Below, piece by piece: positions 43,876 to 64,000 of a stretch of DNA of 64,000 nt. The stretch comes from Dehalococcoidia bacterium. Its GTDB lineage: Bacteria > Chloroflexota > Dehalococcoidia > GIF9 > AB-539-J10. The first letter of the stretch is position 1. Every line of letters starts with the position of its first letter. A program made the translations under genes and the position numbers. The notes under the pieces are model-generated. The model was not told the origin of the DNA, ran no database searches, and was given only the letters and a program-made list of their open reading frames with translations. The DNA is taken from contig JAUWYX010000002.1 in the NCBI GenBank assembly GCA_030615625.1, positions 82,722 through 146,721 on the forward strand, read 5' to 3'.

Positions 43876-44040
43876 TAACAGATTAGGTTTCCCAAAAACC
43901 TGAAGGGGTCTCTGGCTCATCAAATTGCTACTATGGGTCGTATGAGAGCCGGCACCCAGCCTGTGTCACCAGATTCACCGATTTTCTACCAGATGCGGAT
44001 GATTTTATGTAAAATTTGCCAAGCACAGACACTTAAGTGG
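43876..44040. repeat. Element 1 copy b
   Basis: GGTAACAGATTAGGTTTCCCAAAAACCTGAAGGGGTCTCTGGCTCATCAAATTGCTACTATGGGTCGTATGAGAGCCGGCACCCAGCC...; upstream of the DUF169 gene. Confidence 0.6.
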
Positions 44041-44119
44041 TGTGATAGACTACAAATTAAGACTCTGAGGAAACTAAATTATTATTTATTATGTATGCTT
44101 ACCAAAGGAGGAACATAAC

Positions 44120-44911: not shown

Positions 44912-44934
44912 CGAGGCGGGTCTCAGCCCTTATC

Positions 44935-45005
44935 CCCAATTTGCCGATTCTTTTGCCAATCCAAAAAATTCCGAAAAATGCTTGCCAGCGCGGGGCGTGA
45001 TATAA
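44935..45005 (+). promoter_or_regulatory. Promoter module (A-tract, CTTGCC -35-like, extended -10 GTGATATAAT) shared with element 1
   Basis: TTTTGCCAATCCAAAAAATTCCGAAAAATGCTTGCCAGCGCGGGGCGTGATATAATATG parallels the 3' half of element 1 (TTTTTACCAATCCGAGAAATTCCAAAAACTCTTGATGG...GTGATACAATAG) and the GCGCGGGGGGTGTGATATAATA box at 6317-6341. Confidence 0.5.
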
Positions 45006-45072
45006 TATGAACCAAGATTCTGGAAAGCTAAACCATTACAGATTTAGTTATCCATTGAGCAAGGAGGGAACA

Positions 45073-46605
45073 ATGAGGACAAAAGAGCAGTATATACAGG
45101 GTCTGGCAAAAATGAAGCGAAACATTTACTTCAATGGCGCGCTAATCGACCATACAGACGAGCTACAGATGGACTGTATAAATACCATCGGCACCACATT
45201 TGACGAGGCTCTCAAGCCAGAGAACCAGGACCTGTGCACCGCCATTTCTCATCTCACCGGCGAGCGTATCAGCCGCTTCACCCACATCCACCAGAACACC
45301 GACGACCTGCACAAGAAGCAGGACATGACCCGCATGCTCTGCCAGAAGGTAGCCGGCTGCATCCAGCGGTGCATGGGCATTGACGCCACCAATGCCGTCT
45401 ACAACGTTTCTTACGAAGCGGACAAGATGAACAAAGGCGCCACACAGTACCACGAGAACTTCAAGAAGTGGCTTATTCGCTTCCAAACAGAAGACCTGGT
45501 GGGCTGCTGCGCCCAGACGGACGTCAAGGGCGATAGGATGCTCAGGCCTGCTGACCAGCCAAACCCGGATGCCTACGTACGGATTAAAGAGAGGCGCAGT
45601 GATGGCATCATCGTCAGCGGCTGCAAGTTACACATCTCCGAGGCATCAGTTGCTGATGAGATACTGGTGGTGCCGACACGAGCGTTGCGTCCAGAGGACA
45701 AGGACTACGCCGTCGCCTTCGCCATCCCGGGCGATTGGGAAGGACTGAAACAGATTGTTACCGTCCATAACCTCAGGCCCAGAGAACACTTCAAGCGTGG
45801 CTTCCTGCCCGGAGCCACAGATTCCTATATGATATTTGACAACTGCTTCGTGCCCTGGGAAAGAGTCTTCCTCGCCGGCGAATGGCAGCATGGCGGCGTG
45901 CTGGCTCTCCTCTTCGCCCTTTTCCACCGCCACTCCTATTCTGGCTGCAAACCGGCTCTTGGCGACGTACTTTTGGGAACCGCGTCACTTGCTGCCGAGG
46001 TGAATAACATCCACAAGACACCCGGCGTCCGGAAGAAGCTGGCTGAAATTATCATGGTCACCGAGCTGGGTTATGCTGCGGGATACACAGCCTCTGCCCT
46101 GGGCAAGCCAGAGGTCTACATACCCGGGGTGGGATTTGTGCCCTATGGCCCCGGCTCCTATATACCCAATTCAATTTACTGCAACGTCGGCCGCTGCCTG
46201 ACGGGTGAGGCAGTCTATCATGAAGCTGAGATGCTCTGCGATATCACCGGCGGCGTGGTAGCCACCTTCCCACACGAGAAAGATTTCCTGAACCCCGAGA
46301 CCCGTGACTTTCTACTGAAATACACAAAGCGCAATCCGGACATGCCCGTGGAGGATCAGGCACAGCTATGGCGTTATCTGAGTGATGTGCTCTGCTCAGC
46401 GACCGGAGGCATACACAATGTCGGCAGTTACCATGGTGGTGGCTCACCTATCATGGAACAAATCGCCATCACTACCCAGTACGACATCGAGTCCAGGAAG
46501 AAGCTGGTCAGGTACATCGCCGGCATGAGCGGTGGCGACCCTGATGCCCTGAGCAAAAAGATGACTCAGCCAAGCAAGATACCCGCCGAGGCAGCCAGGC
46601 GGTAA
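45073..46605 (+). CDS. 4-hydroxybutyryl-CoA dehydratase / 4-hydroxyphenylacetate 3-hydroxylase (HpaB/AbfD) family flavoprotein
   Basis: MRTKEQYIQGLAKMKRNIYFNGALI..., FTHIHQNTDDLHKKQDMTRMLCQKVAGCIQRCMGIDATNAVY, and DKDYAVAFAIPGD closely parallel the AbfD-type family. ATG at 45073 after AAGGAGGGA. Confidence 0.7.
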   Translation: MRTKEQYIQGLAKMKRNIYFNGALIDHTDELQMDCINTIGTTFDEALKPENQDLCTAISHLTGERISRFTHIHQNTDDLHKKQDMTRMLCQKVAGCIQRCMGIDATNAVYNVSYEADKMNKGATQYHENFKKWLIRFQTEDLVGCCAQTDVKGDRMLRPADQPNPDAYVRIKERRSDGIIVSGCKLHISEASVADEILVVPTRALRPEDKDYAVAFAIPGDWEGLKQIVTVHNLRPREHFKRGFLPGATDSYMIFDNCFVPWERVFLAGEWQHGGVLALLFALFHRHSYSGCKPALGDVLLGTASLAAEVNNIHKTPGVRKKLAEIIMVTELGYAAGYTASALGKPEVYIPGVGFVPYGPGSYIPNSIYCNVGRCLTGEAVYHEAEMLCDITGGVVATFPHEKDFLNPETRDFLLKYTKRNPDMPVEDQAQLWRYLSDVLCSATGGIHNVGSYHGGGSPIMEQIAITTQYDIESRKKLVRYIAGMSGGDPDALSKKMTQPSKIPAEAARR

Positions 46606-46680
46606 CAGGTAAGCCTTTCCCAAAAACCTGAAGGGGTCTCTGGCTCATCAGCTTGCTGGAGACAGTTTCCAAAATGGCCG
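46602..46680. repeat. Element 1 copy c (5' part only, truncated)
   Basis: CAGGTAAGCCTTTCCCAAAAACCTGAAGGGGTCTCTGGCTCATCAGCTTGCT, immediately after the stop of the AbfD-family gene. Confidence 0.55.
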
Positions 46681-46749
46681 CCGATATAAATCTTGATAAG
46701 CTGGGCGTTAGTATGTCATTCCTAGCCAACTTATAAATATTATGTCAAT

Positions 46750-46927
46750 CAGATCAGAACTGCAAATCCCCCGTGGTTTGGCTCTGCCGATGGTTTCGCA
46801 AAATCAAACTATCCTTACCGGGTCGACATCTATAGTCCAGCCCCGCGGCAAAGTGAGCCGGGATAACATCCGAGTTGAGTCAGGGCCGCGGAGGAAGAGT
46901 TGCCAGCGATACCGGCCCCTGGCCCTG
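46750..46927. repeat. Element 2 copy (degenerate duplicate of the priA 3' end plus downstream sequence)
   Basis: CAGAACTGCAAATCCCCCGTGGTTTGGCTCTGCCGATGGTTTCGCAAAATCAAAC...GGGTCGACATCTATAGTCCAGCCCCGCGGCAAAGTGAGCCGGGATAACATCCGAGTTGAGTCAGGGCCGCGGAGGAAGAGTTGCCAGCGATACC matches 58006-58200 and, from AATCAAACC onward, the native priA 3' end at 61609-61740. Confidence 0.65.
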
Positions 46928-47005
46928 CTCCCTTGAAGTTCTGTACCCTACGCTATGATCCGAAGCCTCAATTCCTACCTTTGAGCTTTGAGGCGTTCGA
47001 TGTGC

Positions 47006-48118: not shown

Positions 48119-48378
48119 ATATTTATACTCCTGCTTCGGGAATAACAAGCCAGGCTATTTTACCAGACATAGTTTCAGGATGTCAGACTCACCCTGACTC
48201 AGATGTGCACCACGCGATCTTAATAGGCCACAACTACATGTTTGATAAGCACAGCAGAACATGCCCTAGGTGTCTCCTGTTCTCAGGAGCTACACCACAC
48301 AATACGAATCCTGAAGGTCACTCATGGACCGAGGGCACACAGGCAGATGTTCCATACTACACCTAAAAGCTATTCGCT

Positions 48379-50067: not shown

Positions 50068-50078
50068 GATATCACCCC

Positions 50079-51935
50079 CTATACCTTATCGATTACATAA
50101 TCCAGATTCAGATCCTTGAGCTTTTCCGGCGTTGGCTTTCCGGTCTTTTTGTCCCAGCCGCGGAACTCATAATAGGCATCCAGCGACTGGTCTAATTTTT
50201 TCACCATATGTCCCTGGGCAGCACCCTCAGGTAATGGCTCCTCAAGCAATCGCTTCGGCAGAGTATCATCTGCCCTGGTCAGGCCGTCCCTGACGCTGAA
50301 AGCTCTCGCCAGGTTATAGACCCTCTCCCCGGCTTTTCTGAAATCGTTGACACTAAACTCCCAGCCAACGCAGTTGGCTATCATGTCAACCCAGTCTTCG
50401 GCAGCCAGTGCCATGCCCATGAACTTGCATGTCCCCACGCAATCGAAGACGGTGAGGGCATCTTCGAGGTCTTTGACCACCTTAGCCTCGGCAGGATTTT
50501 CCACAATCCAGTCTTCGATTCGGCTATCTTCAACACACAGGAAAGGAATATCTACGAAGGCTGGCCCTTCAACGTAAGCTGTAATATGGTCGCCGCCGCG
50601 GTTAGCCGTGGCAAATGCCAGACCGCATATCTTGGCTGCCCTAGGGTCATAAGCCGGCAACTCCAGCCCTTTGACGTGCATGGCAAACCTTTCCGCGCCC
50701 TTGTCCAGCTTCGCCGCTACTCTCTTAGTCCCTTCAGCCAGCAGGTCACCAATACCTTCCCTTTTGGCTATCTTGTGTATGAGCTGAATGACAACATCTG
50801 GCTCACCGAATTTCATCTCCAGCCCGTCGGTATCAGCTTTGGTCAATATCCCTTTTTCATAGCACTCTATGGCAAAGGCTATAGTGCTCCCGGTAGAGAC
50901 TACATCCAGCCCGTAGTCATCGCACAAGTTATGTGCCAGTGTCACTGCCTCAAGGTTCTCCAGCGCGCACATGGCACCAAAGGCGCCGATTGTTTCATAT
51001 TCCGGCCCTTCACCCTTACAGGCATAAGGACCGCTCTTCACCACACTTACCCTGCAGCAGCTAATGGGACAGGCGTAGCAATGCTTCCTGTCCACCAAGA
51101 GCGTGCTTTCCAGCGTGATTCCACTTATTTTGTCTATATCCGGCACAACGCCGGTCTGCCAGTTCCTGGTAGGAAACCCTCCCCTGACGTTTACCAAATC
51201 GGTAACCATGGCCGTCCCGTAGGTCTCGAGAGTAATCTTCAGCAGGCTTTCATTAACCAGGTCATAGTTCCTCTTCGAGATTTGGCTGAAAGCATCTTTG
51301 TTGGCTATTTTAATCTCCTGTGTCCCTCTGGCAGCCACTGCCTTCAGACGTTTCGACCCCATTACTGTCCCAACACCACATCTCCCGGCAGGCCGGTGAA
51401 CATCATTGAAAATACCGGCATATCTGACTAAGTTCTCACCAGCTATGCCAATGCAGGCAACATTGAAGTCCTCACCCAGTTCTTCTCTAATTAGCCTGTA
51501 TGTTTCACCAACACCTTTGCCCCAGAGGTGCTTGGCGTCTCTGAGTTCGACTTTGCCGTCATCTATTACCAGGTAGACCGGCTTGGGTGATATACCTTCG
51601 AAGATAATCCCGTCGAAACCTGAGTTTTTCAGGTAGACTCCCCAGCTACCCCCCGAGTTCGCCTCTGCCCAGAAACCGGTTAGAGGCGACTTGGTAACTA
51701 CACAATATCTTCCGGCGCTTGGTGATTCTGTGCCGGTCAAGGGCCCGGTCATAAAAATAAGCTTATTGTCGGGTCCAAGTGGGTCAGTGCCTTTGGACAC
51801 TTCGTCGAAAAGGTATTTTGTTGCCAGTCCGCTCCCTCCCAGGAACATCTTGCAGTCATCCTCTTTAAGAGCCTCTTCTGATACCTTGCCGTTTGTTAAA
51901 TCAACCCTGAGTATCTGTCCCATGTAACCGAACAT
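50079..51935 (-). CDS. Tungsten-containing aldehyde:ferredoxin oxidoreductase (AOR family)
   Basis: MFGYMGQILRVDLTNGKV N-terminus, AOR_N plus pterin-binding domains, and Cys ligands for the 4Fe-4S cluster. The ATG at 51935 follows GGAGGA. Confidence 0.85.
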   Translation of the reverse strand: MFGYMGQILRVDLTNGKVSEEALKEDDCKMFLGGSGLATKYLFDEVSKGTDPLGPDNKLIFMTGPLTGTESPSAGRYCVVTKSPLTGFWAEANSGGSWGVYLKNSGFDGIIFEGISPKPVYLVIDDGKVELRDAKHLWGKGVGETYRLIREELGEDFNVACIGIAGENLVRYAGIFNDVHRPAGRCGVGTVMGSKRLKAVAARGTQEIKIANKDAFSQISKRNYDLVNESLLKITLETYGTAMVTDLVNVRGGFPTRNWQTGVVPDIDKISGITLESTLLVDRKHCYACPISCCRVSVVKSGPYACKGEGPEYETIGAFGAMCALENLEAVTLAHNLCDDYGLDVVSTGSTIAFAIECYEKGILTKADTDGLEMKFGEPDVVIQLIHKIAKREGIGDLLAEGTKRVAAKLDKGAERFAMHVKGLELPAYDPRAAKICGLAFATANRGGDHITAYVEGPAFVDIPFLCVEDSRIEDWIVENPAEAKVVKDLEDALTVFDCVGTCKFMGMALAAEDWVDMIANCVGWEFSVNDFRKAGERVYNLARAFSVRDGLTRADDTLPKRLLEEPLPEGAAQGHMVKKLDQSLDAYYEFRGWDKKTGKPTPEKLKDLNLDYVIDKV

Positions 51936-51985
51936 GTTTGCTCCTCCTTTTTTTTTGCTCGCATGTGCTCCTAAACTGGTCTTTT

Positions 51986-52249
51986 TCACTCTTCGAATTT
52001 TGTCTTGACAGCATCCATTCGCCGCACACGGTGGATTGTCTCAAACGGCGTCTGCGTCAAGTGGAGGACTCGTCTCAATACCTTCTCATCAGGTGCCTCC
52101 CACTCACAGAAGTGCTTGTTTCCAGCGAAATCGCAGTAACTACACCTCCAGGAGACGCCTTTTGGCATGTAATTGGGTGCGGCCTTAGCGCGTGCAATCA
52201 ACTCCTCCTCAGTGAACGGTGCCTTATGAACAACTATAAAACGTGGCAT
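51986..52249 (-). CDS. DUF4242-family small protein
   Basis: MPRFIVVHKAPFTEEEL...HFCEWEAPDEKVLRRVLH resembles DUF4242 (MPxFMDVH...FCLxEAPD...VH). Confidence 0.45.
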   Translation of the reverse strand: MPRFIVVHKAPFTEEELIARAKAAPNYMPKGVSWRCSYCDFAGNKHFCEWEAPDEKVLRRVLHLTQTPFETIHRVRRMDAVKTKFEE

Positions 52250-52309
52250 TTTTACCTCCTGATGGTTCCCCCGAAATTTCTTGAAGTTAGCACAGTGGCT
52301 CCAGTAAAG

Positions 52310-53476
52310 CTAAAAATCTATACTCTTTCCTTCGTATGTGTAGCCCAAGAACCTCTCGGTCTCTGCAACATTAGGTATTCTGGCAGAAACAATCAGCGAG
52401 CCATCGGCCATGATATTGTCTATTAGCTTCTCCATCGCCTTGTTGAAGCTATTCAATGAAATACCCGTTTCTTTAATGCTCAGCGGTTGATTGATATTAT
52501 GAGCCAGTCCTCGTATAGCTTGTGTTAAAATTGTTGCTGCCCTTTTCCCTTTAGGTACTTCAAGTTTGATAGCGTAAGCTATCTCTGCCCAGAGTTCTTC
52601 GCGAACTTCACCGATGAACTCGATGGTGTAGGGCAGAAACAGCCCAACCGCTCTGCCATGGGGAATATGGAATAGGGCGCCAAGGGAATGACCTGCAGCA
52701 TGGGCCATAGATGACAGCGCGTTGATGAAGCCGATACCTGCGATACAGCCTGCATTATGCATCTTTTCCCTGGCTTCCATGTCATTCCCATCCTTCACCA
52801 CTCTAGGAAGATACTGGAAAACAAGCTGTATAGCTTTGATACAGAGACCGTCGGTGAAGTCGTTCTTCCAGGTACAGGTATATCCTTCGACTGCGTGAGT
52901 TAGTGCGTCCATGCCTGTGTCTGCTGTGATTTGTGGAGGCATTGCCCGTGCCAGTTCTGGGTCTACAATAGCAATGTCTGGGACGATCTCCCGGTTAATA
53001 AGGCTCAGCTTCCTTTGGTCAGCTGTATCGGTAAGCACTACCGCAAAAGTTGCCTCGGCACCCGTGCCCGAAGTTGTGGCAACGCAAACAAGCTTGCACT
53101 TGGCACCCAGACCCAAATCCGAAATAAATGGGTTTATTTCCTCTGGCTTTATGTCTGGCCTTTCATATTGCACCCTCATCGCCTTAGCTGCGTCCATAAC
53201 CGAGCCCCCACCTACAGCAACAACCAAATCCGGTCCATACTGGTTCATCAGAGCCACACCCTTTTGTACCGTCTGCAGCGACGGGTCGGGCTCAACCTCA
53301 TCAAAGACAGTGGCTTGTATCCCCGCTTGGGAAAGCTGTTCTTTGACTTTGTCAACGAAACCCAGACTCACAATGTTCTTATCGGTAACGATGAACGCCG
53401 ATTTCCCCTTCAATTGAGCCAGGTGGCTCAGTGCATCTTGTCCAAAAACTACCTCAGGAACCACGAAGTACCACAT
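52310..53476 (-). CDS. Iron-containing alcohol dehydrogenase
   Basis: Fe-ADH family motifs (GGGSVMDAAKAM, the metal-binding His cluster HxxxH...H); 388 aa. Confidence 0.85.
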   Translation of the reverse strand: MWYFVVPEVVFGQDALSHLAQLKGKSAFIVTDKNIVSLGFVDKVKEQLSQAGIQATVFDEVEPDPSLQTVQKGVALMNQYGPDLVVAVGGGSVMDAAKAMRVQYERPDIKPEEINPFISDLGLGAKCKLVCVATTSGTGAEATFAVVLTDTADQRKLSLINREIVPDIAIVDPELARAMPPQITADTGMDALTHAVEGYTCTWKNDFTDGLCIKAIQLVFQYLPRVVKDGNDMEAREKMHNAGCIAGIGFINALSSMAHAAGHSLGALFHIPHGRAVGLFLPYTIEFIGEVREELWAEIAYAIKLEVPKGKRAATILTQAIRGLAHNINQPLSIKETGISLNSFNKAMEKLIDNIMADGSLIVSARIPNVAETERFLGYTYEGKSIDF

Positions 53477-53578
53477 AGCTACCTCCTCTTCATAAACTGG
53501 TTATATTTCTATAACAACATTATGTCAGCAAACAACAGCTATTATCAGCCTGCTTGTGGCTTCACACTATATAAATGT

Positions 53579-53989
53579 CTAATCAGGGAATACGGTCTCA
53601 AATGCAGTCATGCAGTTGACCAGTTCCACGGCTGCCCTGGGCATCTTCATGATTTGGGCCATATCACCTTTGACCTTGATCTTGCCGGTCATCATAGACT
53701 GGACTGGGTCAACCTTTTTGTCCAGTATTTGCTTCATGTTGGTGAACGAGCCGAATATGCGGTATTTCGGAGACTTCTCATTTTCGTCCGTAATCACGCG
53801 AGCCTCGCGGCATTCACCATGCCACAGGTCAAGGTACATGATGTCCCTGTGTTTGTACGATGCATCGGGCTCCACGATAATGTATATGTCTCCTTCCCAC
53901 TTCTTAGCTGCCTCTTTGTATGCCTGGCTGGTTTCCAGCGCCTTTTTCAGTGCATCCACCCACTCTTGTGATCCAAACAAAATAGCCAT
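53579..53989 (-). CDS. SCP2 sterol-carrier-like domain protein
   Basis: C-terminal MTGKIKVKGDMAQIMKM matches the SCP2 signature (GKLKxxGNMxLAMKL). Confidence 0.55.
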   Translation of the reverse strand: MAILFGSQEWVDALKKALETSQAYKEAAKKWEGDIYIIVEPDASYKHRDIMYLDLWHGECREARVITDENEKSPKYRIFGSFTNMKQILDKKVDPVQSMMTGKIKVKGDMAQIMKMPRAAVELVNCMTAFETVFPD

Positions 53990-54126
53990 TTTAACCTCCT
54001 CCTGATGAATTTCGGCTGTAAATTATACCATTTTTTACCCACTCAAGACGTGTTACATAGACACTACCACCCCCTCCCTGAAAATCGATCACTTATATCC
54101 AGCAGTCAGTGACGACGCAGACTACG

Positions 54127-54531
54127 CTATTTCAGTACCATTATCTTTGAAATCTTGAGCAATAGCAAAGGATTGCCCCCAGACTTCAGCTTGCCGGTGA
54201 GCATAGCCACTATAGGGCTGAGTTGGCCAGAGCTAATATGTGCTAGATTTTCAAACCCAGCTTCCATATATGCCGTCGGCTTGGCTACGGCATCATTCTG
54301 CAGCTCAAGTTTGCCTTGATCGAGATGTAGTGTAACGGCTACACCTGACGTCGACTCCTTGATGACTACACTTCCTTTCACCTTCTCAACGCTCTTATAC
54401 TTCTTAGGGTCCTTGAGGTTTGTGTCCATAATCTCCTTGAGCATTACACCCAGACCGTTAAGTTCTTTCCCCTCCTTCACCTTGACTTCAGTCACCTTCA
54501 ATATACCTCCCTTCAAGGATGTCTCCTGCAA
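54127..54531 (-). CDS. SCP2-like domain protein (second copy, divergent)
   Basis: C-terminal LTGKLKSGGNPLLLLKI. Same size class as the neighbouring gene. Confidence 0.4.
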   Translation of the reverse strand: MQETSLKGGILKVTEVKVKEGKELNGLGVMLKEIMDTNLKDPKKYKSVEKVKGSVVIKESTSGVAVTLHLDQGKLELQNDAVAKPTAYMEAGFENLAHISSGQLSPIVAMLTGKLKSGGNPLLLLKISKIMVLK

Positions 54532-54603
54532 AATTTCTTCACCGATTTATCCCTTCATGGTATATTATATTATAATTATCATGACTATTGTAAGGGTATT
54601 TTT

Positions 54604-55479
54604 ATGGAAAGCAACACAGCCGACAAAGATATTATCCGATATATTGCCGGATCAGCAGAGGCATATTTTGCCCCGGACGGGAAAAGACTCCCCGTTATCA
54701 GCCTGAAAACAGCGGCGTCCATCGCCAATTCGCAAGGAATCTCGACCAAAGAGGTGGAAATAACGGCGTTAAAGCAGGGAATTGTCCCCCGGCGATATCT
54801 CCGAAATATAGGCACAATAGGTCTGGTTGGGCAAATTAAACTATTGCAATCAACCGTGGCCGTGGTAGGTGCGGGGGGGTTAGGTGGCACTGTTATCGAG
54901 TTATTGGCCAGACAAGGAGTAGGCCATCTGATTATCATAGATAATGACTGCTTCACTGAGCGGGATTTGAACAGGCAAATTATGTCCACAGAAGAAAATC
55001 TGGGCGAATACAAAGTTACCGTGGCAGCAAAAAGAGCCGGGGAGATAAATTCAGCAACCACAGTCACTACATTTCGGGAAAGGTTGACCAAGGAGAATGC
55101 TCAAAAGCTTCTTGGCAGTGCTCAGGTAGTAGCCGATGGACTTGATAATCTGCCATCACGGTTGGCGGTTGAGCAGGCTTGTCGTCAACTGGCAATACCC
55201 TATGTCTATGCGTCGATAGCCGGCTTTGGTGGTCAACTCATGACTATTTTTCCTGAAGACACGGGGCTGTCTTCAGTTTATGGGTCATCCAATACTATTC
55301 CCGGACAGGGTATAGAGACTAAAATCGGTAACCCTACAGCCACACCTGCAATCATTGCCGCATTACAGGTTCAGGAGGTAGTCAAAATCATCACTGGAGT
55401 CGGTAAACCTGCACGTAACCAGATCCTCTTGGTGGATGCCAGGGAATGTATTATCGACAAAATTGAACTGGGAAGGTAG
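54604..55479 (+). CDS. ThiF/MoeB/HesA-family E1-like adenylyltransferase with an extra N-terminal segment
   Basis: Rossmann-type nucleotide-binding motif VAVVGAGGLGG plus the ThiF core. The ~75-aa N-terminal extension is of unknown function. Confidence 0.65.
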   Translation: MESNTADKDIIRYIAGSAEAYFAPDGKRLPVISLKTAASIANSQGISTKEVEITALKQGIVPRRYLRNIGTIGLVGQIKLLQSTVAVVGAGGLGGTVIELLARQGVGHLIIIDNDCFTERDLNRQIMSTEENLGEYKVTVAAKRAGEINSATTVTTFRERLTKENAQKLLGSAQVVADGLDNLPSRLAVEQACRQLAIPYVYASIAGFGGQLMTIFPEDTGLSSVYGSSNTIPGQGIETKIGNPTATPAIIAALQVQEVVKIITGVGKPARNQILLVDARECIIDKIELGR

Positions 55480-55483
55480 GGAA

Positions 55484-55768
55484 ATGGCATTAGTTACAGT
55501 GCGCTTCTATAGTCTCTGGCGTTCTTATCTCGACACAGATAGCACCACTTTGCAAGCTGATCACATAGATGACGCACTAACTCAGCTCGAAGAGAAATTT
55601 GGTTCTCGCCTCCGAGAGAAACTCGAGGCTGCTGGGATTCATCTGGATGGGAAGATACAGGACTATTCGCTCATTTTGCTGAACGGTATCGCCTTGCGCA
55701 ATCTGAAGAGCACTGCCCTAAAAGAAGGAGATGTGCTACACATCTTTCCACCCGCCATCGGTGGGTAA
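55484..55768 (+). CDS. MoaD/ThiS-family sulfur-carrier protein (C-terminal Gly-Gly)
   Basis: 94 aa beta-grasp-sized protein ending ...HIFPPAIGG*. It lies directly downstream of the ThiF-like gene. Confidence 0.6.
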   Translation: MALVTVRFYSLWRSYLDTDSTTLQADHIDDALTQLEEKFGSRLREKLEAAGIHLDGKIQDYSLILLNGIALRNLKSTALKEGDVLHIFPPAIGG

Positions 55769-55899
55769 CAGCCGAAGAATATCTGATTGTACCTTGTACC
55801 CTTCCGAGTAATTTGGCATACGCCCTCTTTCCTCACAGAGAAAGTTTGCTTTGTCAATCTCCTGATTTGTGTAGTTGCCTGATTTATCAGGCTTTGCCC

Positions 55900-56135
55900 T
55901 TCAACAAGCCAGGCAAGATACCCGTCGAGGCAGCCAGGCGGTAACAGGTAAGTCTTTCCCAAAAACCTGAAGGGTTTTCTGGCTTATCAGCTTGCTATTA
56001 TGGGTTGGTATGAGAGCTAGTGCCCAGCCTCTATCACTCAATTTATGGACTTTTTTACCGAATGGTGATGAAACTTTGAAAAAATCTTGGAAAATCAGAA
56101 AAACTATTGACAATTCCTTCATTAGTGATATAATA
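55900..56135. repeat. Element 1 copy d, including a 3' remnant of the AbfD-family gene and the promoter module
   Basis: 55906-55945 (CAAGATACCCGTCGAGGCAGCCAGGCGGTAACAGGTAAG) duplicates the last ~12 codons plus stop of 45073..46605 (...SKIPAEAARR*). Then comes GTAAGTCTTTCCCAAAAACCTGAAGGG..., followed by TTGACAATTCCTTCATTAGTGATATAATAGG (TTGACA-N17-TGnTATAAT). Confidence 0.65.
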
Positions 56136-56409
56136 GGCTCCATAAGAATAGTCTTAAAAAAATAGTATTTAAGACTAATATCAAGGTGGGTGGTCAAGTG
56201 TGTGCGTCAGGGGTTTGTTATAGTTCCTACGATGCTCCTAAGAGCACATACAGCTATGTGAACGAGGCTCTTTTTCCCTGCCATGGCAAAATCAATCCTC
56301 CCTTTCGAAACCTAAAATCATTGCCAGGCATAGCCGAGGCAATCCCTTCTCTCTTGAGTCGAAGGATAAGGATTTTGGAAAAACCGAACTGTTACTAAGG
56401 AGTTGAAGT

Positions 56410-57993
56410 ATGAAGATAATACTTAGCTCGAGGAGACGCCACTACGTGAAAAGACTTGGCATCTTTTTGATTACGGTAGCCTTAATTGTGGGAATAGCAG
56501 GCTGTGAGGGTAGTTGTAGTTCTACTCCTGTTCAATACGATCTCACCACCTCCAGTACTGCAGGCGGCGACGTAGTTATCTCCGGTGAGGGAACTTATGC
56601 CGATGGAGCAATAGTCACCATGGAGGCCGTGGCGGATGAGTGTTACGAGTTCGTCAACTGGACCGGCGCAGACGTCGCCGACCCCTACTCTCCCATAACC
56701 ACCATCACTATGGATGAAGCTAAGAGTATAACCGCCAATTTTGCCCTGCTGAGCTACGACCTTACAGCAGACAGCACAGATGGTGGCGAGGTAACCACTC
56801 CTGGCGAGGGGACTTTTACCTATGACTGCGGCACGGTGGTTGACCTGGTGGCGACTCCAGATGCTTACTACGGGTTTGTCGAGTGGACCGGCGATGTGGA
56901 CACCATCGCCGATGTTTATGCTGCCTCAACCGCCATCACCATGAACGGCGACTATTCTATCACCGCTAACTTCATCCTGTTCGCCGGAGGGAACGGAACA
57001 GCCGAGAATCCCTATCAGATTGCGGATTGGTACCACCTTGATAATGTCCGCAATTATCTAAGCAGCTACTTTATCGTCATAAACGACCTCGATTCCAACT
57101 CTATTGGCTATACAGAGCTGGCGAGTGAGACAAGCCACGAAGGAAAAGGCTGGGAGCCAATTGGAAGTATTGCTGTAAATGACGCATTCGTCGGCAGCTT
57201 CGACGGTCAGGGGTACGAGATATGCGACCTGTTTATCGACCGCCCTGACGAATCTGATGTGGGGCTCTTCGGTGTTGTTGAAGAATTAGGGGTCATCGAG
57301 AATGTCGGCGTAGTAGTAAACGGCAATGTGACTGGCCAAGACGATGTTGGCGTTCTGGTGGGAAAGAATGAGGGCACTGTAAGCAACTCCTGTTCCACCG
57401 GCAATGTGACTGGCAACCTCAATGTTGGCGGTCTGGTGGGATGGAATTTTAAGGGCACTGTCACCGACACCTATTCCACCGGCAATGTAACTGGCCTAGA
57501 CAATGTTGGCGGTCTGGTGGGATGGAATACGGGCACTATGAGCAACTCCTATTCCACGGGCGGCGTGACTGGCAATACGAGTGTTGGCGGTCTGACCGGA
57601 AAGAATGGCGGCACTGCGAGCAACTCCTATGCCACCGGCAGCGTGACTGGTGATGATAATGTCGGTGGTCTGGTGGGAAAGAATGACAACACTGGCACTG
57701 TTAGCAACTCCTATTCCACTGGCAGTGTGACTGGCAATACGCATGTTGGCGGTCTGATGGGAAGGAATCAGGGCACTGAGAGCAACTCCTTCTGGGACAC
57801 CGAGACCAGCGGACAAGCTACTTCAGATGGAGGGGACGGCAAGACCACCGCGGAAATGCAGGACATCACCACCTTCTCAGGAGCAGGCTGGGACATAATC
57901 ACAGTCGCCAATCCTGGCACGCGCAACCCTTCCTACATCTGGAATATCGTTAACACTGTGACTTATCCATTCCTGAGCTGGCAGCCTGTTTAA
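56410..57993 (+). CDS. Lipoprotein with two InlB-B-type repeats and tandem GLUG-motif repeats
   Basis: Lipobox LIVGIAGC. Two ~80-aa repeats (FVNWTGADV...ITANF and FVEWTGDV...ITANF). It also has at least six GLUG-type repeats (VGGLVGxNxGTxSNSYSTGxVTG). Confidence 0.65.
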   Translation: MKIILSSRRRHYVKRLGIFLITVALIVGIAGCEGSCSSTPVQYDLTTSSTAGGDVVISGEGTYADGAIVTMEAVADECYEFVNWTGADVADPYSPITTITMDEAKSITANFALLSYDLTADSTDGGEVTTPGEGTFTYDCGTVVDLVATPDAYYGFVEWTGDVDTIADVYAASTAITMNGDYSITANFILFAGGNGTAENPYQIADWYHLDNVRNYLSSYFIVINDLDSNSIGYTELASETSHEGKGWEPIGSIAVNDAFVGSFDGQGYEICDLFIDRPDESDVGLFGVVEELGVIENVGVVVNGNVTGQDDVGVLVGKNEGTVSNSCSTGNVTGNLNVGGLVGWNFKGTVTDTYSTGNVTGLDNVGGLVGWNTGTMSNSYSTGGVTGNTSVGGLTGKNGGTASNSYATGSVTGDDNVGGLVGKNDNTGTVSNSYSTGSVTGNTHVGGLMGRNQGTESNSFWDTETSGQATSDGGDGKTTAEMQDITTFSGAGWDIITVANPGTRNPSYIWNIVNTVTYPFLSWQPV

Positions 57994-58005
57994 TACAACT
58001 AGCAC

Positions 58006-58342
58006 TCAGACCAGAACTGCAAATTCCCCGTGGTTGGGCTCTGCCGATGGTTTCGCAAAATCAAACCATACCCACCGGGTCGACATCTATAGTCCAGCCC
58101 CGCGGCAAAGTGAGCCGGGATAACATCCGAGTTGGGCTAGGACCACGGAGGAAGAGTTGCCAGCGATACCTGCCCCTGGCTCTGAAGGCAAAAGTAGGCA
58201 CAGGACCAATTACATTGAAATCAATCATGTCCTTTCTTGCCTTTTCATCAAGAATTAGACGATACACCCTCTCTGCCTCACGGCGACATAACTCTTCATT
58301 GGTGTGGCTATAAACCAGGCGGACTAACTGGCTAAAAGGGGG
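58006..58342 (-). pseudogene. Element 2 copy: duplicated 3' fragment of priA (last ~94 codons) plus downstream sequence
   Basis: The reverse strand encodes PPFSQLVRLVYSHTNEELCRREAERVYRLILDEKARKDMIDFNVIGPVPTFAFRARGRYRWQLFLRGPSPTRMLSRLTLPRGWTIDVDPVGMV*. This is ~90% identical to the native PriA C-terminus at 61611-61892. The ORF 58061..58267 is part of it. Confidence 0.7.
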
Positions 58343-58378
58343 GGAGCAGCTCGTAATGATGGAAGGGGAGCATAAACA

Positions 58379-58408
58379 GAGAGCCGAGGCTCAAAAGCCT
58401 CGGCTCTC
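58379..58408. repeat. Palindromic hairpin element (13-bp perfect stem GAGAGCCGAGGCT / AGCCTCGGCTCTC, loop CAAA)
   Basis: Second copy of the GAGCCGAGGCT palindrome seen at 43690-43714. It sits between element 2 and the acylase stop. Confidence 0.5.
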
Positions 58409-58484
58409 CATACCAGCCCTGGCTAGCAGTCGGAATGGGCTACACCCACCAGACTTTCGAATCCTGTGGCCGTAGCTTTAATTT

Positions 58485-61001
58485 CTAGAACACCCTCCTC
58501 CATGTTTCCACTGCCTCGATATCCTTACTGCGGAATAACATGTGCTTGTATTGCCAGGCTGCGTACAGCGGCAATTGGTCGAACGCATAAGGGCTGGGAC
58601 CTAGAAAACTCACAAACCCGCTCTGTCCGGGCGGAATCACACTTACCGCATGTGGTGGTGGTCCCTTCGCTCCTGCACCTGGTTTTGCATGTGACGGTGG
58701 CTTTGAGGGCATTTCGGCGATGTGATTGTAGGTGCCGCGGTTCATATAGGGATGGCTGGCCGGGTCCCCTGGTAGAGCTCCCTGCTCGTCATAAGTCTGC
58801 ATGCTCACCGGGGTAAGCCAGGTGGACATATCTTCGCCATATGCGAGCTTCAGGTCATCAATAGCATCTTTCAGCGCGCCGACAATCAGTGCATCCAGTG
58901 CGGCGTCAGAGGGATACCCAGGGTAGTTGAGGGAGCCATCGTCCCTGAAGACGCGGAGTAAGAGGCTGGGCCTACCCTTTATCTGCCCGATTATGTCGGG
59001 TGAAAGGATACCGGCAAACACTGCGGGAACGATTCTGTCATACCAGGAGTTAAAGATGGTCAGACCAGCATGGTCGTACGTGGGATTGGGGTCAGTAGGC
59101 CATTTGGGTGACACAAGGTCGACATAGCTAACAGGAAGAGGTGTTGCGGTAGCCCAGGCTAAGAGGTACCCTAGTGCTCCCTCGACCTCTGGGTCAGTGG
59201 TTGTTCCCAAGTAGGCTGTGACCACGGCTATCAGATCCGCGACGAAGTTCATTCCGTTGATATTGTTGTATCCCGCAATCTGGTTAATCATGTTCATGTC
59301 GTCGAATGTCACGTCTCCCCTTGGAGCGTAATAATCAGCTAGAACATTCATCAGAATCTGTACACGGTGACCCTCGCCCCAGCCAAAATCTGATTCTGCA
59401 TAGGGCCAGTCGGCGATTGGCTTGTTGTTCCAGTTGGTAAGCCAGCCCTGCTCGGGGTTGATGACCCTGGGCATCTCTTCAGGGCCTGTGACACGAACCC
59501 ACTCTTGTGTTCCGTCACCCATCAAGGGCAACCTGCGATCAGCATCTACCGGCTTTACCGGGAAGCGCCCAGCATGCCAGTAGCCTATGTTCCCTTCCCT
59601 GTCAGCCCAGCAGAAGTTGTGGGAAGGCCATATCAGTTCCACTGCCGCCTCAAATTCCTCAATGTTCGTTGCCTCCTGGAAGAGCTGCCAACCTTGCTCG
59701 GCACCAATCTCATTCCTGTAGAAGGGGGTATGCAGGGTAATAGCCGTGCCCGCAGCTATGCCGACGATAGGACCATAGTGCGAGCGATAAAAGGTCTCCG
59801 TCACCGGTCCCGGTAGCCCCTGAACCTGGAATGTCTCTGTTCTAACTTCCATGTCACGCCAGTTACCTTCGTACAAATACTGTAATGGGTTCTCAGGATT
59901 CAGCACCAGGATGCGTATGTCTATGACATCGGAAGAACCGGTGGTTGACGTCCAGGCGCCATGTTCGCTGACACCAATCAAAATGAATGGACCGGATCCG
60001 GGGAATGCCATACCCTGGGCACTGATTCCCGCGCCATGCAACCCTATCTCGTAAACGATTTGCGGAATCGTATGCCCCATCTGCGGTCCTCCCAGTTCAA
60101 GTGCGTTCCCAGTTGCCGACAATTCCGGACTGATAAGCACGGCGTTGCTTCCAAATTTTGTCGGCATACCCAGCGACTCAAGCGTTTCATCCTGAGCTGC
60201 CCGCGACTCCTCATACTGCTCAAGGAGTCCGCTGACGCCATCGGGGAAGTCGAACGAAGGCATACTCAAGAAAGTCGCTCCATAAGCCTCGTCGGCTATG
60301 GTCACAGGTGCTCCAGGGTCATTCAGTGGGAAGAGCTCGTTCCAGATGAGCCCTCCACTCGCTGGGCCATGCATTCCCTGAAGCGTAAGTAGAGCTTCGT
60401 AGAAAGCGCCCTCGTTGCCGCCTGTTCCGCCAAATTGCCAGGCCATCAGCACTGTAACGGCTACCACATCTGCGACGCTAAAGGGCTCAAGTTTATCAAC
60501 TAGCTCCATCCCGATATATTCAACAGGTATAAGGGATAGGTCGCCCTGAGCTGCTGCAGCTAAGGCCTCGGAAATGTAAAGATTTATGCCGTCTACGTAA
60601 GCCTCAATCATCGGCTTGAGATGTTCGTAGCCTTCGCCCGGGTCCCACTCCTCATAAATTTGCAGTAACTCGTCCTGGTTATACCACAACGCTCTCATTT
60701 CCATATCCTGCGGGAGGACGCTTGGGCCTAGTAATTCAGCAAGACGTCCGGAAGCCATTCTCCTGAAGACGTCGGCCTGCCAGAGTCTGTCTTGAGCCAT
60801 GGCATAGCCAGTTCCAAAGCCCAAACCCTCTTTCGTATCCGAGAAAACATGGGGAACTCCATAATCGTCTCTTATGATCCGGAGGTAGCGCCAAGGATGC
60901 CCATCAGCCGTACCGGCGGCCACGCCAGGTAATGGAAAGGTGCTGATTACGAGCACAACGATCAATAGGACTGCTAATATCGATATCTTGGCTTTAGACA
61001 T
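58485..61001 (-). CDS. Secreted penicillin amidase (peptidase S45, Ntn-hydrolase) family protein
   Basis: Signal peptide. YLRIIRDDYGVPHVFSDTKEGLGFGTGYAMAQDRLWQADVFRRMASGRLAELLG matches the S45 N-terminal signature (RDxxGVPHI...GYxxAQDRLxQM...RRxAxGxLSE); 838 aa. Confidence 0.8.
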   Translation of the reverse strand: MSKAKISILAVLLIVVLVISTFPLPGVAAGTADGHPWRYLRIIRDDYGVPHVFSDTKEGLGFGTGYAMAQDRLWQADVFRRMASGRLAELLGPSVLPQDMEMRALWYNQDELLQIYEEWDPGEGYEHLKPMIEAYVDGINLYISEALAAAAQGDLSLIPVEYIGMELVDKLEPFSVADVVAVTVLMAWQFGGTGGNEGAFYEALLTLQGMHGPASGGLIWNELFPLNDPGAPVTIADEAYGATFLSMPSFDFPDGVSGLLEQYEESRAAQDETLESLGMPTKFGSNAVLISPELSATGNALELGGPQMGHTIPQIVYEIGLHGAGISAQGMAFPGSGPFILIGVSEHGAWTSTTGSSDVIDIRILVLNPENPLQYLYEGNWRDMEVRTETFQVQGLPGPVTETFYRSHYGPIVGIAAGTAITLHTPFYRNEIGAEQGWQLFQEATNIEEFEAAVELIWPSHNFCWADREGNIGYWHAGRFPVKPVDADRRLPLMGDGTQEWVRVTGPEEMPRVINPEQGWLTNWNNKPIADWPYAESDFGWGEGHRVQILMNVLADYYAPRGDVTFDDMNMINQIAGYNNINGMNFVADLIAVVTAYLGTTTDPEVEGALGYLLAWATATPLPVSYVDLVSPKWPTDPNPTYDHAGLTIFNSWYDRIVPAVFAGILSPDIIGQIKGRPSLLLRVFRDDGSLNYPGYPSDAALDALIVGALKDAIDDLKLAYGEDMSTWLTPVSMQTYDEQGALPGDPASHPYMNRGTYNHIAEMPSKPPSHAKPGAGAKGPPPHAVSVIPPGQSGFVSFLGPSPYAFDQLPLYAAWQYKHMLFRSKDIEAVETWRRVF

Positions 61002-61610
61002 TTTCCATCACTCTCCTTTCCTTTTGTAATAGTTCGCCCTGAAACGTAGTTTAGCCTCTCTGAAATCTCAGTCCATAGTACATCACCCCCTCGCTGTCAA
61101 GCCTCCATCACCAGTCATCACCCCAACCAGCACAGGCACGAGCGTAATCCCAAAGATTCTGGCTGTCACCTGCCTTCTTCCCATTGTCGTACATCCCTTG
61201 CTCATTGTTTTACATTTATCCTCCTCCCTCGACAGAGCTTCAGCGTGAGCTCAGTCGCACGCCCCGGACAGGTTCTTATCCTTCTTCCCTCAAGCGGAAG
61301 GGGATTGCTTGGGCTATGCCTGGCATGGCCTGGGATTTCGAATGGGAGGATAGATTTTGCCGTGGCTGGGAAAAAAGAGCCGAGACTACATGTCTATATG
61401 CGCTCAACTGAATCTGATGAGGACTAAAGTAACCCCTGACACACACTCTTGACCCCCACTTTTGTATTATTTTATAGTACCACCATCAACAGAAATTTGT
61501 CAACAGGTCTTAACCATGTGGATAAGTAGAAAGCAGCCATATACTCGGCAATAAGAAGAACAAAATGGGAAAGCCCAATATTGATTATCCCCTGAGAAAT
61601 GTCTGTAGAA

Positions 61611-64000
61611 TCAAACCATCCCTACGGGGTCGACATCTATAGTCCAGCCCCGCGGCAAAGTGAACCGGGATAACATCCGGGTTGAGTCAGGGCCACGGAG
61701 GAAGAGTTGCCAGCGATACCTGCCCCTGGCCCTGAAGGCAAAAGCGGGCACAGGACCAATTACATTGAAATCAATCATGTCCTCTCTTGCCCTTTCATCA
61801 AGAATTAGACGATGCACCCTCTCTGCCTCACAGCGACATAGCTCCTCATTGGTGTGGCTATAAACCAGGCGGACTAACTGGCTAAAAGGGGGATAATTGT
61901 ATCGGCGGCGATAATCTATTTCTTTATAATAAAAACCAAGATAATCATGCCTGGCAGCAGCTTCAATAATGTAGTTATCGGGGGAGTAAGTCTGGATGAT
62001 GACCTTCCCCGCTTTAACCCCACGCCCCGCCCTGCCAGCTACCTGACACAGGAGTTGAAAAGTGCGCTCGCTACTTCGGAAATCAGGAAAATTAAGGCCG
62101 GTATCGGCACTGATTATCCCGGCCAGGGTCACTTGAGGCAGATCTAATCCTTTGGCTATCATCTGGGTGCCAATAAGCACATCTGCCTTGTGGTCACGAA
62201 AATTCTTTAACAACTCCTCATGAGCATATCTCCTGGTAATCACATCTCTGTCCCAGCGAAGCAATCTTGCTTCAGGGAAGAAATGCCTTATCTCTTCTTC
62301 TACCCTCTGCGTGCCAATGCCCAGAAACCTCAGATAACGCCGAGAACACCGGGGGCAGCTTTGGGGTGCTGGAACAGAATAACGACAGCGATGGCAAATT
62401 AGCCTTTTCTCCGCTGAATGGTAAGTAAGGGCTATGGAGCAGCGGGGGCAGCGAAAGACAAAGCCACAGTTACGACATCGAACAAAGGTAGCTGTGCCCC
62501 GACGGTTAAGGAAAAGAATTATCTGCTCGCCCTGCGCCAAAGTTTCTTTCATGGCAGCTAACAAGGAACGGCTAAACAAGCTTGTGTTTCCGGCTTTAAG
62601 TTCTTCCCTCAAATCCACTATGCTTACTTCGGGGAGAGGGGAATAACCACGAGGAGTAATTCTTTCCTTTAGCTCTACAAGATAATATTCGCCTTGCTGT
62701 GCCTTATGGAAACTGCCAATATCAGGGGTAGCACTGCCCAGGATGACAACAGCATCGCTGAGTTGAGCCAATTCAATGGCCACGTCGCGGGCATGATAGC
62801 GAGGTGACTTATCTTCTTGTTTGTATGTCCATTCATGCTCTTCATCGATAATGATAAGACCGAGGTTGGCCAGGGGCGCAAATAATGCGCTCCTCGGTCC
62901 GATGACGACGTCGCAGTTTCCCTCCACTATCCATTGCCACTCGTCGAACTGTTCTCCCAAGGAAAGGCCACTATGCAGTACTGCCACACGCCCGGGGAAG
63001 CGATCAGCAAATCTCTCTACTGTTTGTTGGGTCAAAGCGATTTCAGGGATAAGACAAATGCCTCGCTTACCGGCGGCAATAACCTGAGCTAATGCCCGCA
63101 GGTAAATCTCAGTCTTTCCGCTGCCAGTAACGCCAAAAAGGAGAAAAACCGGTGGACTGCTAGATTGCCTTGCTTCCTTCACAATGACATCTTGGATCGA
63201 TTCCCAAGCAGTTTGTTGAGATGAGGTGAGAATCGGAGCTGGAGAAGTTGTGAGGCTGAGGTGAGATAAGGGGTCACGTCTTACCCTGAGCCTTTCCACT
63301 GAGACCAAATGGCGGCTCTCCAGGGCTTTGATAGTGGCAAGAGAGCTATTGAGACGTTTCCTCAGTTCGCTAATTGAAATAGGTTGAGTCTGCCCGGTCA
63401 GAAATTCTAATAGTTCTGCCTGTTTATAAGCTCTAGACTTATCCAGGCGAGCTTTCTCCGCTTCAATTTCTTCTCTGTCAGCTATTAACTTAATATAAGG
63501 AAGCGTTTTGGGCTTTATCTTTGCCTTTTCCAATTCCAGAGTTTTTGCAATTAGCTGACGGTCTAGCAACTGGTCGGTAATTTGCTTGGCTTTTCTTTTG
63601 CCAATTGCTTTCTCCAGCTCAGCCAAGCTTGTCTTCCCCTCCCTTCTCATAATGTGCAGGATTTGCCTTTGCTCGGGTGTCAGGGGCAAATCTACTTGGG
63701 AATCTGTTAGCTGAAAGCAAGTAATAGCCCGTCTCTCAAATCCCGGAGGCAGCATTAAAGCCAGGGCATCGAAAAGGGGGGCAAAATAGTGTTCGCTTAT
63801 CCACTGGGCAAGCTTTATTTGTATCGGGGAAAGCAAAGGAAAATCAGTAACAATGCCAGCTATTTCCTTAGTTTCTTCAACCGATGGCTCGTCTGATAAT
63901 CGGAGCACAATCCCCTGAATAACCCTGGAGCCAAAGGGCACCCATACTGCTTGCCCGGCACTAATATTGAGCCCTGGCGGTATGGCATAGCAAAAAGTTG
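61611..64000 (-). CDS. priA: Primosomal protein N' (PriA helicase); N-terminus extends beyond the window end
   Basis: VPFGSRVIQGIV N-terminal motif, Walker A GVTGSGKTE, DEAH-like DEEHE, and Cys4 zinc-binding CRNCGFVFRCPRCS...CHRCRY. The frame remains open upstream of 63941 (...AIPPGLNISAGQAVWVPFGSR) to the window edge. Its 3' ~285 bp form the native copy of element 2. Confidence 0.9.
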   Translation of the reverse strand, partial: TFCYAIPPGLNISAGQAVWVPFGSRVIQGIVLRLSDEPSVEETKEIAGIVTDFPLLSPIQIKLAQWISEHYFAPLFDALALMLPPGFERRAITCFQLTDSQVDLPLTPEQRQILHIMRREGKTSLAELEKAIGKRKAKQITDQLLDRQLIAKTLELEKAKIKPKTLPYIKLIADREEIEAEKARLDKSRAYKQAELLEFLTGQTQPISISELRKRLNSSLATIKALESRHLVSVERLRVRRDPLSHLSLTTSPAPILTSSQQTAWESIQDVIVKEARQSSSPPVFLLFGVTGSGKTEIYLRALAQVIAAGKRGICLIPEIALTQQTVERFADRFPGRVAVLHSGLSLGEQFDEWQWIVEGNCDVVIGPRSALFAPLANLGLIIIDEEHEWTYKQEDKSPRYHARDVAIELAQLSDAVVILGSATPDIGSFHKAQQGEYYLVELKERITPRGYSPLPEVSIVDLREELKAGNTSLFSRSLLAAMKETLAQGEQIILFLNRRGTATFVRCRNCGFVFRCPRCSIALTYHSAEKRLICHRCRYSVPAPQSCPRCSRRYLRFLGIGTQRVEEEIRHFFPEARLLRWDRDVITRRYAHEELLKNFRDHKADVLIGTQMIAKGLDLPQVTLAGIISADTGLNFPDFRSSERTFQLLCQVAGRAGRGVKAGKVIIQTYSPDNYIIEAAARHDYLGFYYKEIDYRRRYNYPPFSQLVRLVYSHTNEELCRCEAERVHRLILDERAREDMIDFNVIGPVPAFAFRARGRYRWQLFLRGPDSTRMLSRFTLPRGWTIDVDPVGMV

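Follow-up and report, generated by a model that had tools for sequence, protein, structure and literature searches.

We analysed a 64,000-nucleotide stretch of a contig from an uncultured Dehalococcoidia bacterium (the window, below, always means this whole 64-kb stretch) around the open reading frame (ORF) at 56410–57993 on the + strand. Our favored reading as a whole, to which we assign a probability of roughly 75%, is that this gene encodes a lipid-anchored surface protein, that a conserved leader sits between its promoter and its start codon, and that the whole has spread by segmental duplication and relocation. The lipoprotein itself is unremarkable, one of a very large family of surface lipoproteins of Dehalococcoidia built from known kinds of repeat, and the leader could be the only feature of the locus that is new. 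Coordinates of all features are collected in Table 1, and related loci are cited by number (L001 and so on).

The 527-residue product starts with an export signal made up of a basic n-region (RRRH..KR), a hydrophobic segment (LGIFLITVALIVG) and the lipobox I-A-G-C at residues 29–32, the arrangement by which bacterial lipoproteins are recognized (basic n-region, hydrophobic h-region and [LVI][ASTVI][GAS]C with an invariant cysteine). Across 44 aligned homologues, conservation of Cys32, Gly28 and Leu25 is in each case at least 90%. A Tat signal peptide was considered because an SRRRHY stretch is present, but is not supported: no Tat-signal model matched, and the arginine pair, which the S/T-R-R-x-F-L-K motif requires, is not conserved, the orthologue consensus being MKxILSSRxHxY. 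Beyond the anchor, the Pfam family Flg_new_2 (PF18998), a divergent InlB B-repeat, matches two stretches with 85.8 bits (gathering cut-off 23.6, E = 2e-24, profile positions 1–70 of 73), and Glug (PF07581) matches with 55.9 bits (gathering cut-off 20.5, E = 3e-15) in four hidden Markov model (HMM) stretches. Pattern matching resolves the GLUG region into six regular units of 26–28 residues with one degenerate unit in front, and a DNA periodicity of 78–84 nt at 57321–57790 mirrors the regular units. The two marks by which we assign GLUG membership, a score at or above the gathering threshold and tandem units of about 26–28 residues with a G-[GL]-[LF/V]-x-G core, are both present.

From the 44-sequence alignment, AlphaFold builds a model (mean predicted local distance difference test score, pLDDT, of 84.4) that displays two all-β domains followed by a β-helix at residues ∼200–465 with pLDDT values above 90. 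The top solved match in Foldseek is BACOVA_03286 (PDB code 3n6z, E = 1e-6, template modeling (TM) score of 0.60 on the target), with Gram-positive IgA1 protease chains next, and phmmer aligns residues 302–496 to 7uvl and 7uvk (E = 1.5e-8). The GLUG domain is thus modeled as the right-handed β-helix of solved GLUG proteins. The C-terminal ∼62 residues are conserved among homologues, but model confidence is low beyond residue 495. The initial annotation, made from the letters of the DNA, had read the gene as a lipobox protein with two B-type repeats and several GLUG repeats, and this description holds in full: both Pfam families score far above their cut-offs, Cys32 is conserved, and the repeats are not a matter of low complexity, given a confidently modeled β-helix that matches solved GLUG β-helices.

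A homologue search returned at least 7,944 proteins at E≤0.001 (8,000 candidates scored). Flg_new_2 and Glug were both present in 120 of 120 among the homologues listed, and the lengths of the listed matches run from 500 to about 900 residues, a spread that arises because the number of B-repeats differs. With more than 7,900 homologues of the same architecture, the lipoprotein therefore belongs to a known kind. Relatives in species-representative genomes come almost entirely from metagenome-assembled genomes (MAGs) of Dehalococcoidia and Chloroflexota, often as several paralogues per genome, and the β-helix part is also found in some other bacterial MAGs. Relatives of the β-helix/GLUG part with 35–52% identity occur in archaeal MAGs as well (Thermoplasmata, Methanococcoides, Aenigmatarchaeota and halophilic lineages), which suggests cross-domain spread or binning contamination. 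Among the closest loci, L001 shares ∼91% nucleotide identity across the lipoprotein gene and 93–94% in syntenic flanking genes; the orthologue in L004 is 84% identical at the amino acid level. Literature searches on GLUG in Dehalococcoidia found nothing relevant. The lipoprotein, from a family with thousands of Dehalococcoidia members now called “hypothetical”, can be named as a surface protein with a lipobox, a B-repeat stalk and a GLUG β-helix; the group is abundant in sediments and aquifers, and its envelope is poorly understood.

Within the window, the second B-repeat (residues 115–188) is 62% identical to residues 569–642 of the β-helix protein encoded at 39582–41786 and 42% identical to the protein encoded at 4617–6164. 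The repeat had been put forward as a third module common to the surface proteins of this region, alongside the signal peptide and a C-terminal domain. Its presence in two other window proteins bears this out for the repeat itself, but the lipoprotein has neither the signal peptide nor the ∼85-residue C-terminal domain in common with them. That domain (...LYYKTSPPIANFISQHEVLRTAVR...) is common to the secreted proteins encoded at 39582–41786, 42011–43630 and 4617–6164, with 59–82% identity, and the signal peptides of the first two, both β-helix proteins, are about 71% identical.

From these features, a Sec-type signal peptide would be cleaved before Cys32, and the lipidated cysteine would tether the protein to the outside of the cytoplasmic membrane. 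A stalk of two small all-β B-repeat domains would present a seven-coil GLUG right-handed β-helix and a short C-terminal cap. Both the lipid anchoring and the function are predictions from sequence. The most likely role is that of a binding or structural module of a protein-rich envelope, as an adhesin or envelope component; this is favored over an enzyme because the protein has no catalytic domain. An enzymatic role, as an IgA1-protease-like metalloprotease or as a β-helix polysaccharide lyase or hydrolase, is in our judgment quite improbable. The best solved relatives do carry an “IgA1 protease” annotation, yet their alignment is confined to the non-catalytic GLUG β-helix. ZmpA and ZmpD are the only NCBIfam models matched at E up to 1, and the ZmpA match scores 19.1 bits against a cut-off of 3000 bits, again over the GLUG region only. 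We rejected assignment to the M26 IgA1 metalloproteases (ZmpA/B/C/D), which are defined by HEXXH-containing catalytic middle and C-terminal domains and a full-length family model, since the ZmpA and ZmpD models run to more than 1800 positions against 527 residues here and no peptidase matched; the Pfam scan at E up to 1 found neither Peptidase_M26 nor any other catalytic family. In the pneumococcal IgA1 protease itself, the β-helix is a non-catalytic N-terminal gate domain that repositions on substrate binding, with the catalytic residues outside it, in the middle and C-terminal domains (PMC7695701). Right-handed β-helices are also common in pectate lyases and polygalacturonases, and Foldseek lists weak matches of this kind at ranks 42–48; the polygalacturonase matches have a probability of 0.14 and TM scores of about 0.2.

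Upstream of the gene, a promoter scan finds a σ70 consensus promoter with a score of 12/12, written out as TTGACA-N13-TGATATAAT. Its exact sequence is unique in the window, whereas the extended −10 GTGATATAAT recurs, with 16 window sites at two or fewer mismatches against 4.0 expected. A promoter shared among the surface genes had been described here with a 17-nt spacer; a strong promoter is indeed present, but the N17 pattern as literally stated has no match in the window, a variable-gap search gives a spacing of 16 nt, and the coordinates were off by 1–2 nt. Because the initial annotation ended its first flanking element at the promoter, it missed the leader, the most conserved non-coding feature of the locus. 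An inverted repeat with 19-nt arms lies at the predicted transcript 5′ end, and a single-sequence fold of the 5′ untranslated region was no better than shuffles (z = −1.1).

The leader occurs twice in the window, ahead of the lipoprotein gene and ahead of a penicillin-amidase gene, and aligned upstream regions show the block kept in front of the orthologues in L001–L005 and L015. It was recovered in 13 further genome loci by profile search and in at least 120 loci by an exact-pattern scan of metagenome contigs; overall, nhmmer gives at least 152 matches spread over at least 136 loci and representing 131 distinct cores. Of 115 ORFs lying next downstream of the leader, 107 (93%) encode a signal peptide, compared with 280 of 1101 long control ORFs taken at the same loci (Fisher p = 4e-48). 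Leader and downstream gene are always co-directional, with the signal-peptide gene 45–400 nt away. At least five unrelated types of signal peptide follow the leader, on cargo that includes B-repeat proteins, RCC1-like repeats, β-helices, an amidase and a membrane protein, and the leader remains 70–90% identical even where the flanking DNA can no longer be aligned. Rfam 15 gave no relevant match at E up to 10 for either window copy and nothing at gathering score for the leader in five multi-copy loci, and literature searches found no paper describing the motif. A coding function was considered and rejected: an ORF from the GTG at 56186 varies in length, in the amidase copy a stop comes after 11 codons, and common 1–2-nt indels together with variable stops exclude a conserved reading frame.

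The leader core ends in a terminator-like hairpin and a U-run. Pairing in the hairpin reaches 80.5% over 111 sequences, compared with 24–45% when the partner columns are slid, and only 9–23 of 500 shuffles match the observed values; the mean ΔG of the hairpin is −10.4 kcal/mol with a mean z of −2.0. A by-eye G-C to C-G covariation in the hairpin failed on inspection, pair 108–157 being unpaired in 49 of 110 sequences. The minimum-energy fold of the window copy is dominated by a candidate antiterminator helix, GUGUGUGC/GCACAUAC, which takes in the hairpin's 5′ half and would compete with it; this helix is 91–94% paired, with its 5′ strand fixed by the search pattern.

We consider the leader a candidate cis-acting leader RNA. 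A transcript would start at the σ70 promoter and traverse a ∼105-nt leader ending in the hairpin, and the leader may set or coordinate expression of envelope proteins through attenuation or mRNA stabilization. Attenuation is the most likely mechanism; the alternatives are mRNA stabilization and a shared 5′ module for expression. The broader proposal, that the leader is an undescribed Dehalococcoidia family of cis-regulatory RNAs for exported-protein genes, a shared attenuator or riboregulator that coordinates the envelope proteome, is one that we advance tentatively and at less than even odds. If it is true, the real “cassette” is a module of promoter, leader and signal peptide reused before many cargo domains. 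If functional, the leader would be a rare example of a single RNA element linked to exported proteins as a class, and would give metatranscriptomics a direct handle.

It is somewhat unlikely, in our estimate, that the leader lacks any RNA function of its own. In that case it would be part of a 5′ module (promoter, leader and signal peptide) spread by duplication, gene conversion or recombination, or a protein-binding region acting at the DNA level, and its link to exported proteins would come from descent. This would account for several leader copies per genome (L059, L117, L125 and L167), for an identical signal peptide (MKIILSSRRHHYVARVSIFLITVALIAGMVGC) at the head of many different mature proteins, for the lack of significant covariation in the long-range helices, and for a 10-bp palindrome over the −10/start region of many copies. 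Such spread fits less well with the unrelated signal peptides and non-homologous cargo behind the leader, with its persistence beyond alignable flanks, with an orientation that is always that of the downstream gene, and with conservation extending more than 100 nt past the −10 and ending in a hairpin and U-run. The palindrome itself, ATAGTACTAT, is perfect, spans the −10/transcription-start region of many leader-bearing promoters (e.g., L099, L093, L115, L166 and L060) and is located at about columns 15–27 of the leader alignment; it could serve as an operator.

A separate small RNA gene running from promoter to terminator, with downstream genes under promoters of their own, is an improbable alternative to a cis-acting leader. 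The strong promoter, the ∼105–130-nt conserved core and the hairpin with its U-run do amount to a complete unit of this kind, and a possible second promoter-like site lies between the other leader copy and the amidase start. However, there is no other + strand promoter-like site in 56135–56410, conservation runs on beyond the U-run (GCCACAGCAAAATC..CCTCCC), and the strict co-direction and short distance to a signal-peptide gene are at odds with an independent gene.

The lipoprotein gene is flanked on both sides by repeated sequence (elements 1 and 2 in Table 1). These flanks had been noted before; both are real and have copies elsewhere in the window. Element 1 begins with a copy of the last codons and stop of an HpaB-like gene (45007–46605) together with sequence from downstream of that gene. 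Its middle part, E1b, has copies just upstream of three promoters and is lineage-specific, being found in the window, L001, L004 and L206 and missing from the orthologous spacer between recR and the β-helix gene in L202. A structured RNA in E1b was considered and rejected (z between −0.3 and −1.4, both strands). Element 2 consists of a spacer and the 3′ end of priA, and a third, shorter copy of spacer and priA fragment lies at 46745–46927. The spacer is common to L001, L202 and the scar at 46745, and is not in the present priA downstream region. At 46567–46927, the true HpaB 3′ end is followed by filler, spacer and priA fragment, as in an empty counterpart of the lipoprotein locus. This junction looks like the deletion scar of a second copy, because the lipoprotein gene of L206 occupies exactly that position; the 86-nt filler (46659–46744) has no match in the cassette or in L206 or L202.

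Related contigs place the gene in several settings. In L001 the lipoprotein gene and spacer are followed directly by intact priA, with the unit between MoaD and priA as in the window. In L202–L205 the order is dnaX-ybaB-recR, two β-helix proteins, GLUG1, GLUG2 and priA; behind GLUG1 come the spacer, ∼100 nt of priA and then a second promoter and leader, which makes this a tandem duplication of the whole unit. L206 has the gene at the HpaB/FrhB junction, with a priA fragment downstream of it. Contigs L202–L204 are 98.8% identical and encode an identical GLUG1 protein, and their GLUG2 products are 646 residues, 726 residues (about one extra B-repeat) or split into 202 and 461 residues; these differences are repeat-number variation or decay between close strains. 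In the window, ∼12 kb of metabolic genes at ∼43700–55800 (DUF169, HpaB-like, FrhB-like, acyl-CoA synthetase, AFOR, Fe-ADH, SCP2, ThiF and MoaD-like) interrupt a recR-β-helix-β-helix-GLUG-priA locus that is contiguous in L202–L205. Neither L001 nor L202 has the penicillin-amidase gene (58485–61001, minus strand) or the promoter and leader that belong to it, and in both the GLUG gene abuts priA. In the window, the amidase block (58343–61610) lies between direct repeats of the priA 3′ end (58061–58342 and 61611–61892, 93.6% identical). The block absent in L001 is therefore an insertion, with one of these repeats at either side. The question of strain variability had been raised for the lipoprotein gene; all five types of related contig carry it, and the strain-variable part is the amidase block.

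By the arrangements in these contigs, an ancestral recR-β-helix-β-helix-GLUG-priA locus has been expanded in the window lineage by the ∼12-kb block and the amidase, each step leaving duplicated gene ends. The comparison shows promoter, leader, gene, spacer and priA 3′ fragment behaving together as a unit of duplication and relocation rather than a demonstrable mobile element, and elements 1 and 2 are gene-end remnants of the segmental duplication and relocation of this unit. Mechanistically, circular DNA may have integrated by a single crossover, or loss may have followed a tandem duplication. The earlier description of the locus as a discrete cassette thus survives in the sense of a unit that is duplicated and moved, but its flanks are duplicated HpaB and priA gene ends and not element termini.

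We give little credence to a mobile gene cassette of integron, transposon or island type, in which elements 1 and 2 would be recombination ends and the gene would be gained and lost between strains. Repeats on both sides of the gene, a position or copy number that differs among L202–L205, L206 and the window, and the “empty” junction holding both flanks would all be expected of one. The flanks, however, are copies of the HpaB and priA 3′ ends with reading frames preserved rather than att sites or terminal repeats; a search for terminal inverted repeats around the cassette found none of note; no recombinase, integrase or transposase was found among the neighboring genes scanned, which are metabolic or replication genes; the GC content shows no anomaly; and the gene is present in every related contig type. 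A duplicated target stretch on each side of the insert fits homologous or duplicative recombination better. The locus thus shows surface-protein genes between recR and priA growing by duplicative insertion with gene-end scars, and such scars are useful for interpreting “repeats” in MAGs.

Several points weigh against our favored reading of a lipid-anchored surface protein with a conserved leader, spread by duplication. The first 38 and last 33 residues of the lipoprotein are poorly modeled by AlphaFold, and no binding partner can be predicted from its sequence. For the leader, the hairpin of the window copy is weak (−7.7 kcal/mol), RNAalifold on the 111 leaders yields a weak helix only (−4.9 kcal/mol), and the alternative helices (P0/P2, GUGUGUGC/GCACAUAC and a closing helix) show no covariation beyond shuffles, in a collection gathered mostly by an exact-match pattern that fixes the core and so lowers the power to detect covariation. 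The scan that scored the promoter did not list the hairpin of the window copy. The link between leader and exported proteins could also stem partly from common descent of 5′ modules and not from function.

Table 1. Features of the lipoprotein locus and related loci (window positions unless a locus is named).
Feature	Position	Strand	Basis or remarks
σ70 consensus promoter	56107..56134	+	Promoter scan; TTGACA 56107–56112, 16-nt spacer, TATAAT 56129–56134, extended −10 TG
Inverted repeat	56140..56186	+	19-nt arms, 79% complementary; at predicted transcript 5′ end
Conserved ∼105-nt leader	56160..56284	+	Most conserved block GGTCAAGTGTGTGCGTCAG; nhmmer E 4.7e-33 vs 111-sequence profile
Terminator-like hairpin, then U-run	56241..56278	+	AGAGC-ACAU...AUGU-...GCUCU; 3′ end of leader core
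Shine-Dalgarno AAGGAG	56397..56402	+	7 nt ahead of ATG
Signal peptide with lipobox, aa 1–32	56410..56505	+	IAGC, Cys32; motif inspection and homologue conservation
Two Flg_new_2/divergent InlB B-repeat domains, aa 42–113 and 115–189	56533..56976	+	Pfam, model
Predicted right-handed β-helix with GLUG coils, aa ∼195–465	56992..57804	+	Pfam, DNA repeats, phmmer, AlphaFold, Foldseek
C-terminal ∼62 aa (FWDTETSGQ...YPFLSWQPV) and stop codon	57805..57993	+	Homologue alignment, model
Element 1	55901–56140		Copies 39116–39270, 43872–44024; partial 46567–46658
Element 1 start, pseudo-copy of HpaB-like gene 3′ end	55907..55942	+	KPGKIPVEAARR-stop vs QPSKIPAEAARR-stop; 93% identity
Element 1 middle (E1b), ∼130–160-nt repeated intergenic module	55936..56100	+	Copies 39116–39270, 43872–44024; partial 46606–46658
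Element 2	57994–58345		Copies 61602–61892, 46745–46927
Spacer (58 nt) downstream of lipoprotein gene	57994..58060		
Element 2 main part, last 94 codons of priA	58061..58342	-	Frame intact; 93.6% identical to 61611–61892
Empty cassette counterpart	46567..46927		True HpaB 3′ end, 86-nt filler, spacer, 124-nt priA fragment
Second promoter and leader copy (61481–61363)	61363..61503	-	TTGACA-18-TACTAT; upstream of penicillin-amidase gene
GLUG2 paralogue	L202 8536–10476; L203 8168–10348; L204 6763–8740		
Leader-bearing loci			L001–L006, L015, L036, L047–L064, L082–L206
Loci with archaeal/cross-domain β-helix relatives			L026, L048, L057, L066, L069, L070, L074, L075, L081

Other direct repeats in the window are unrelated to the locus (28052–28350 and 29065–29363, 299 nt, 91%; 6408–6528 and 6990–7110, 121 nt, 94%), and a tRNA gene lies at 29718–29790 on the minus strand.

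Several known systems resemble parts of this locus. Leader attenuators and other long 5′ leaders of surface-layer genes place a strong promoter, a long leader and a hairpin with U-run before a highly expressed envelope gene, and the conserved 5′ leader described here has the same layout. The present leader differs in having no Rfam match and in that one leader family serves many unrelated exported-protein genes. At the level of the locus, a comparison is offered by strain-variable cell-surface gene islands of abundant environmental prokaryotes, such as the cell-wall-associated island of Haloquadratum walsbyi (PMC4535781): the present locus is likewise dense in surface genes and varies among close strains in content, copy number and repeat number. 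It is set apart by duplication and relocation with gene-end scars and by the insertion of metabolic genes, in a comparison of a handful of contigs. For the protein, BACOVA_03286 (3n6z) and the Gram-positive M26 IgA1 metalloproteases (6xjb, 7uvk and 7uvl) combine PF07581 repeats with a right-handed β-helix as the lipoprotein does. In contrast to the M26 proteases, the lipoprotein has no metalloprotease middle or C-terminal domains and no G5 or LPXTG modules, carries a lipobox anchor in place of a sortase signal, and is at most 22% identical. Finally, the Flg_new_2 or divergent InlB B-repeat, related to the Listeria-Bacteroides repeat (PF18998; PF09479; TIGR02543), likewise forms tandem spacer domains of a surface protein. 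Unlike Listeria internalin, the present protein is a Chloroflexota lipoprotein without a leucine-rich repeat (LRR) or GW module, and its B-repeats are modeled as all-β with no helix, a difference from the Listeria-Bacteroides repeat; its two ∼75-residue repeats fit the PF18998 model end to end.

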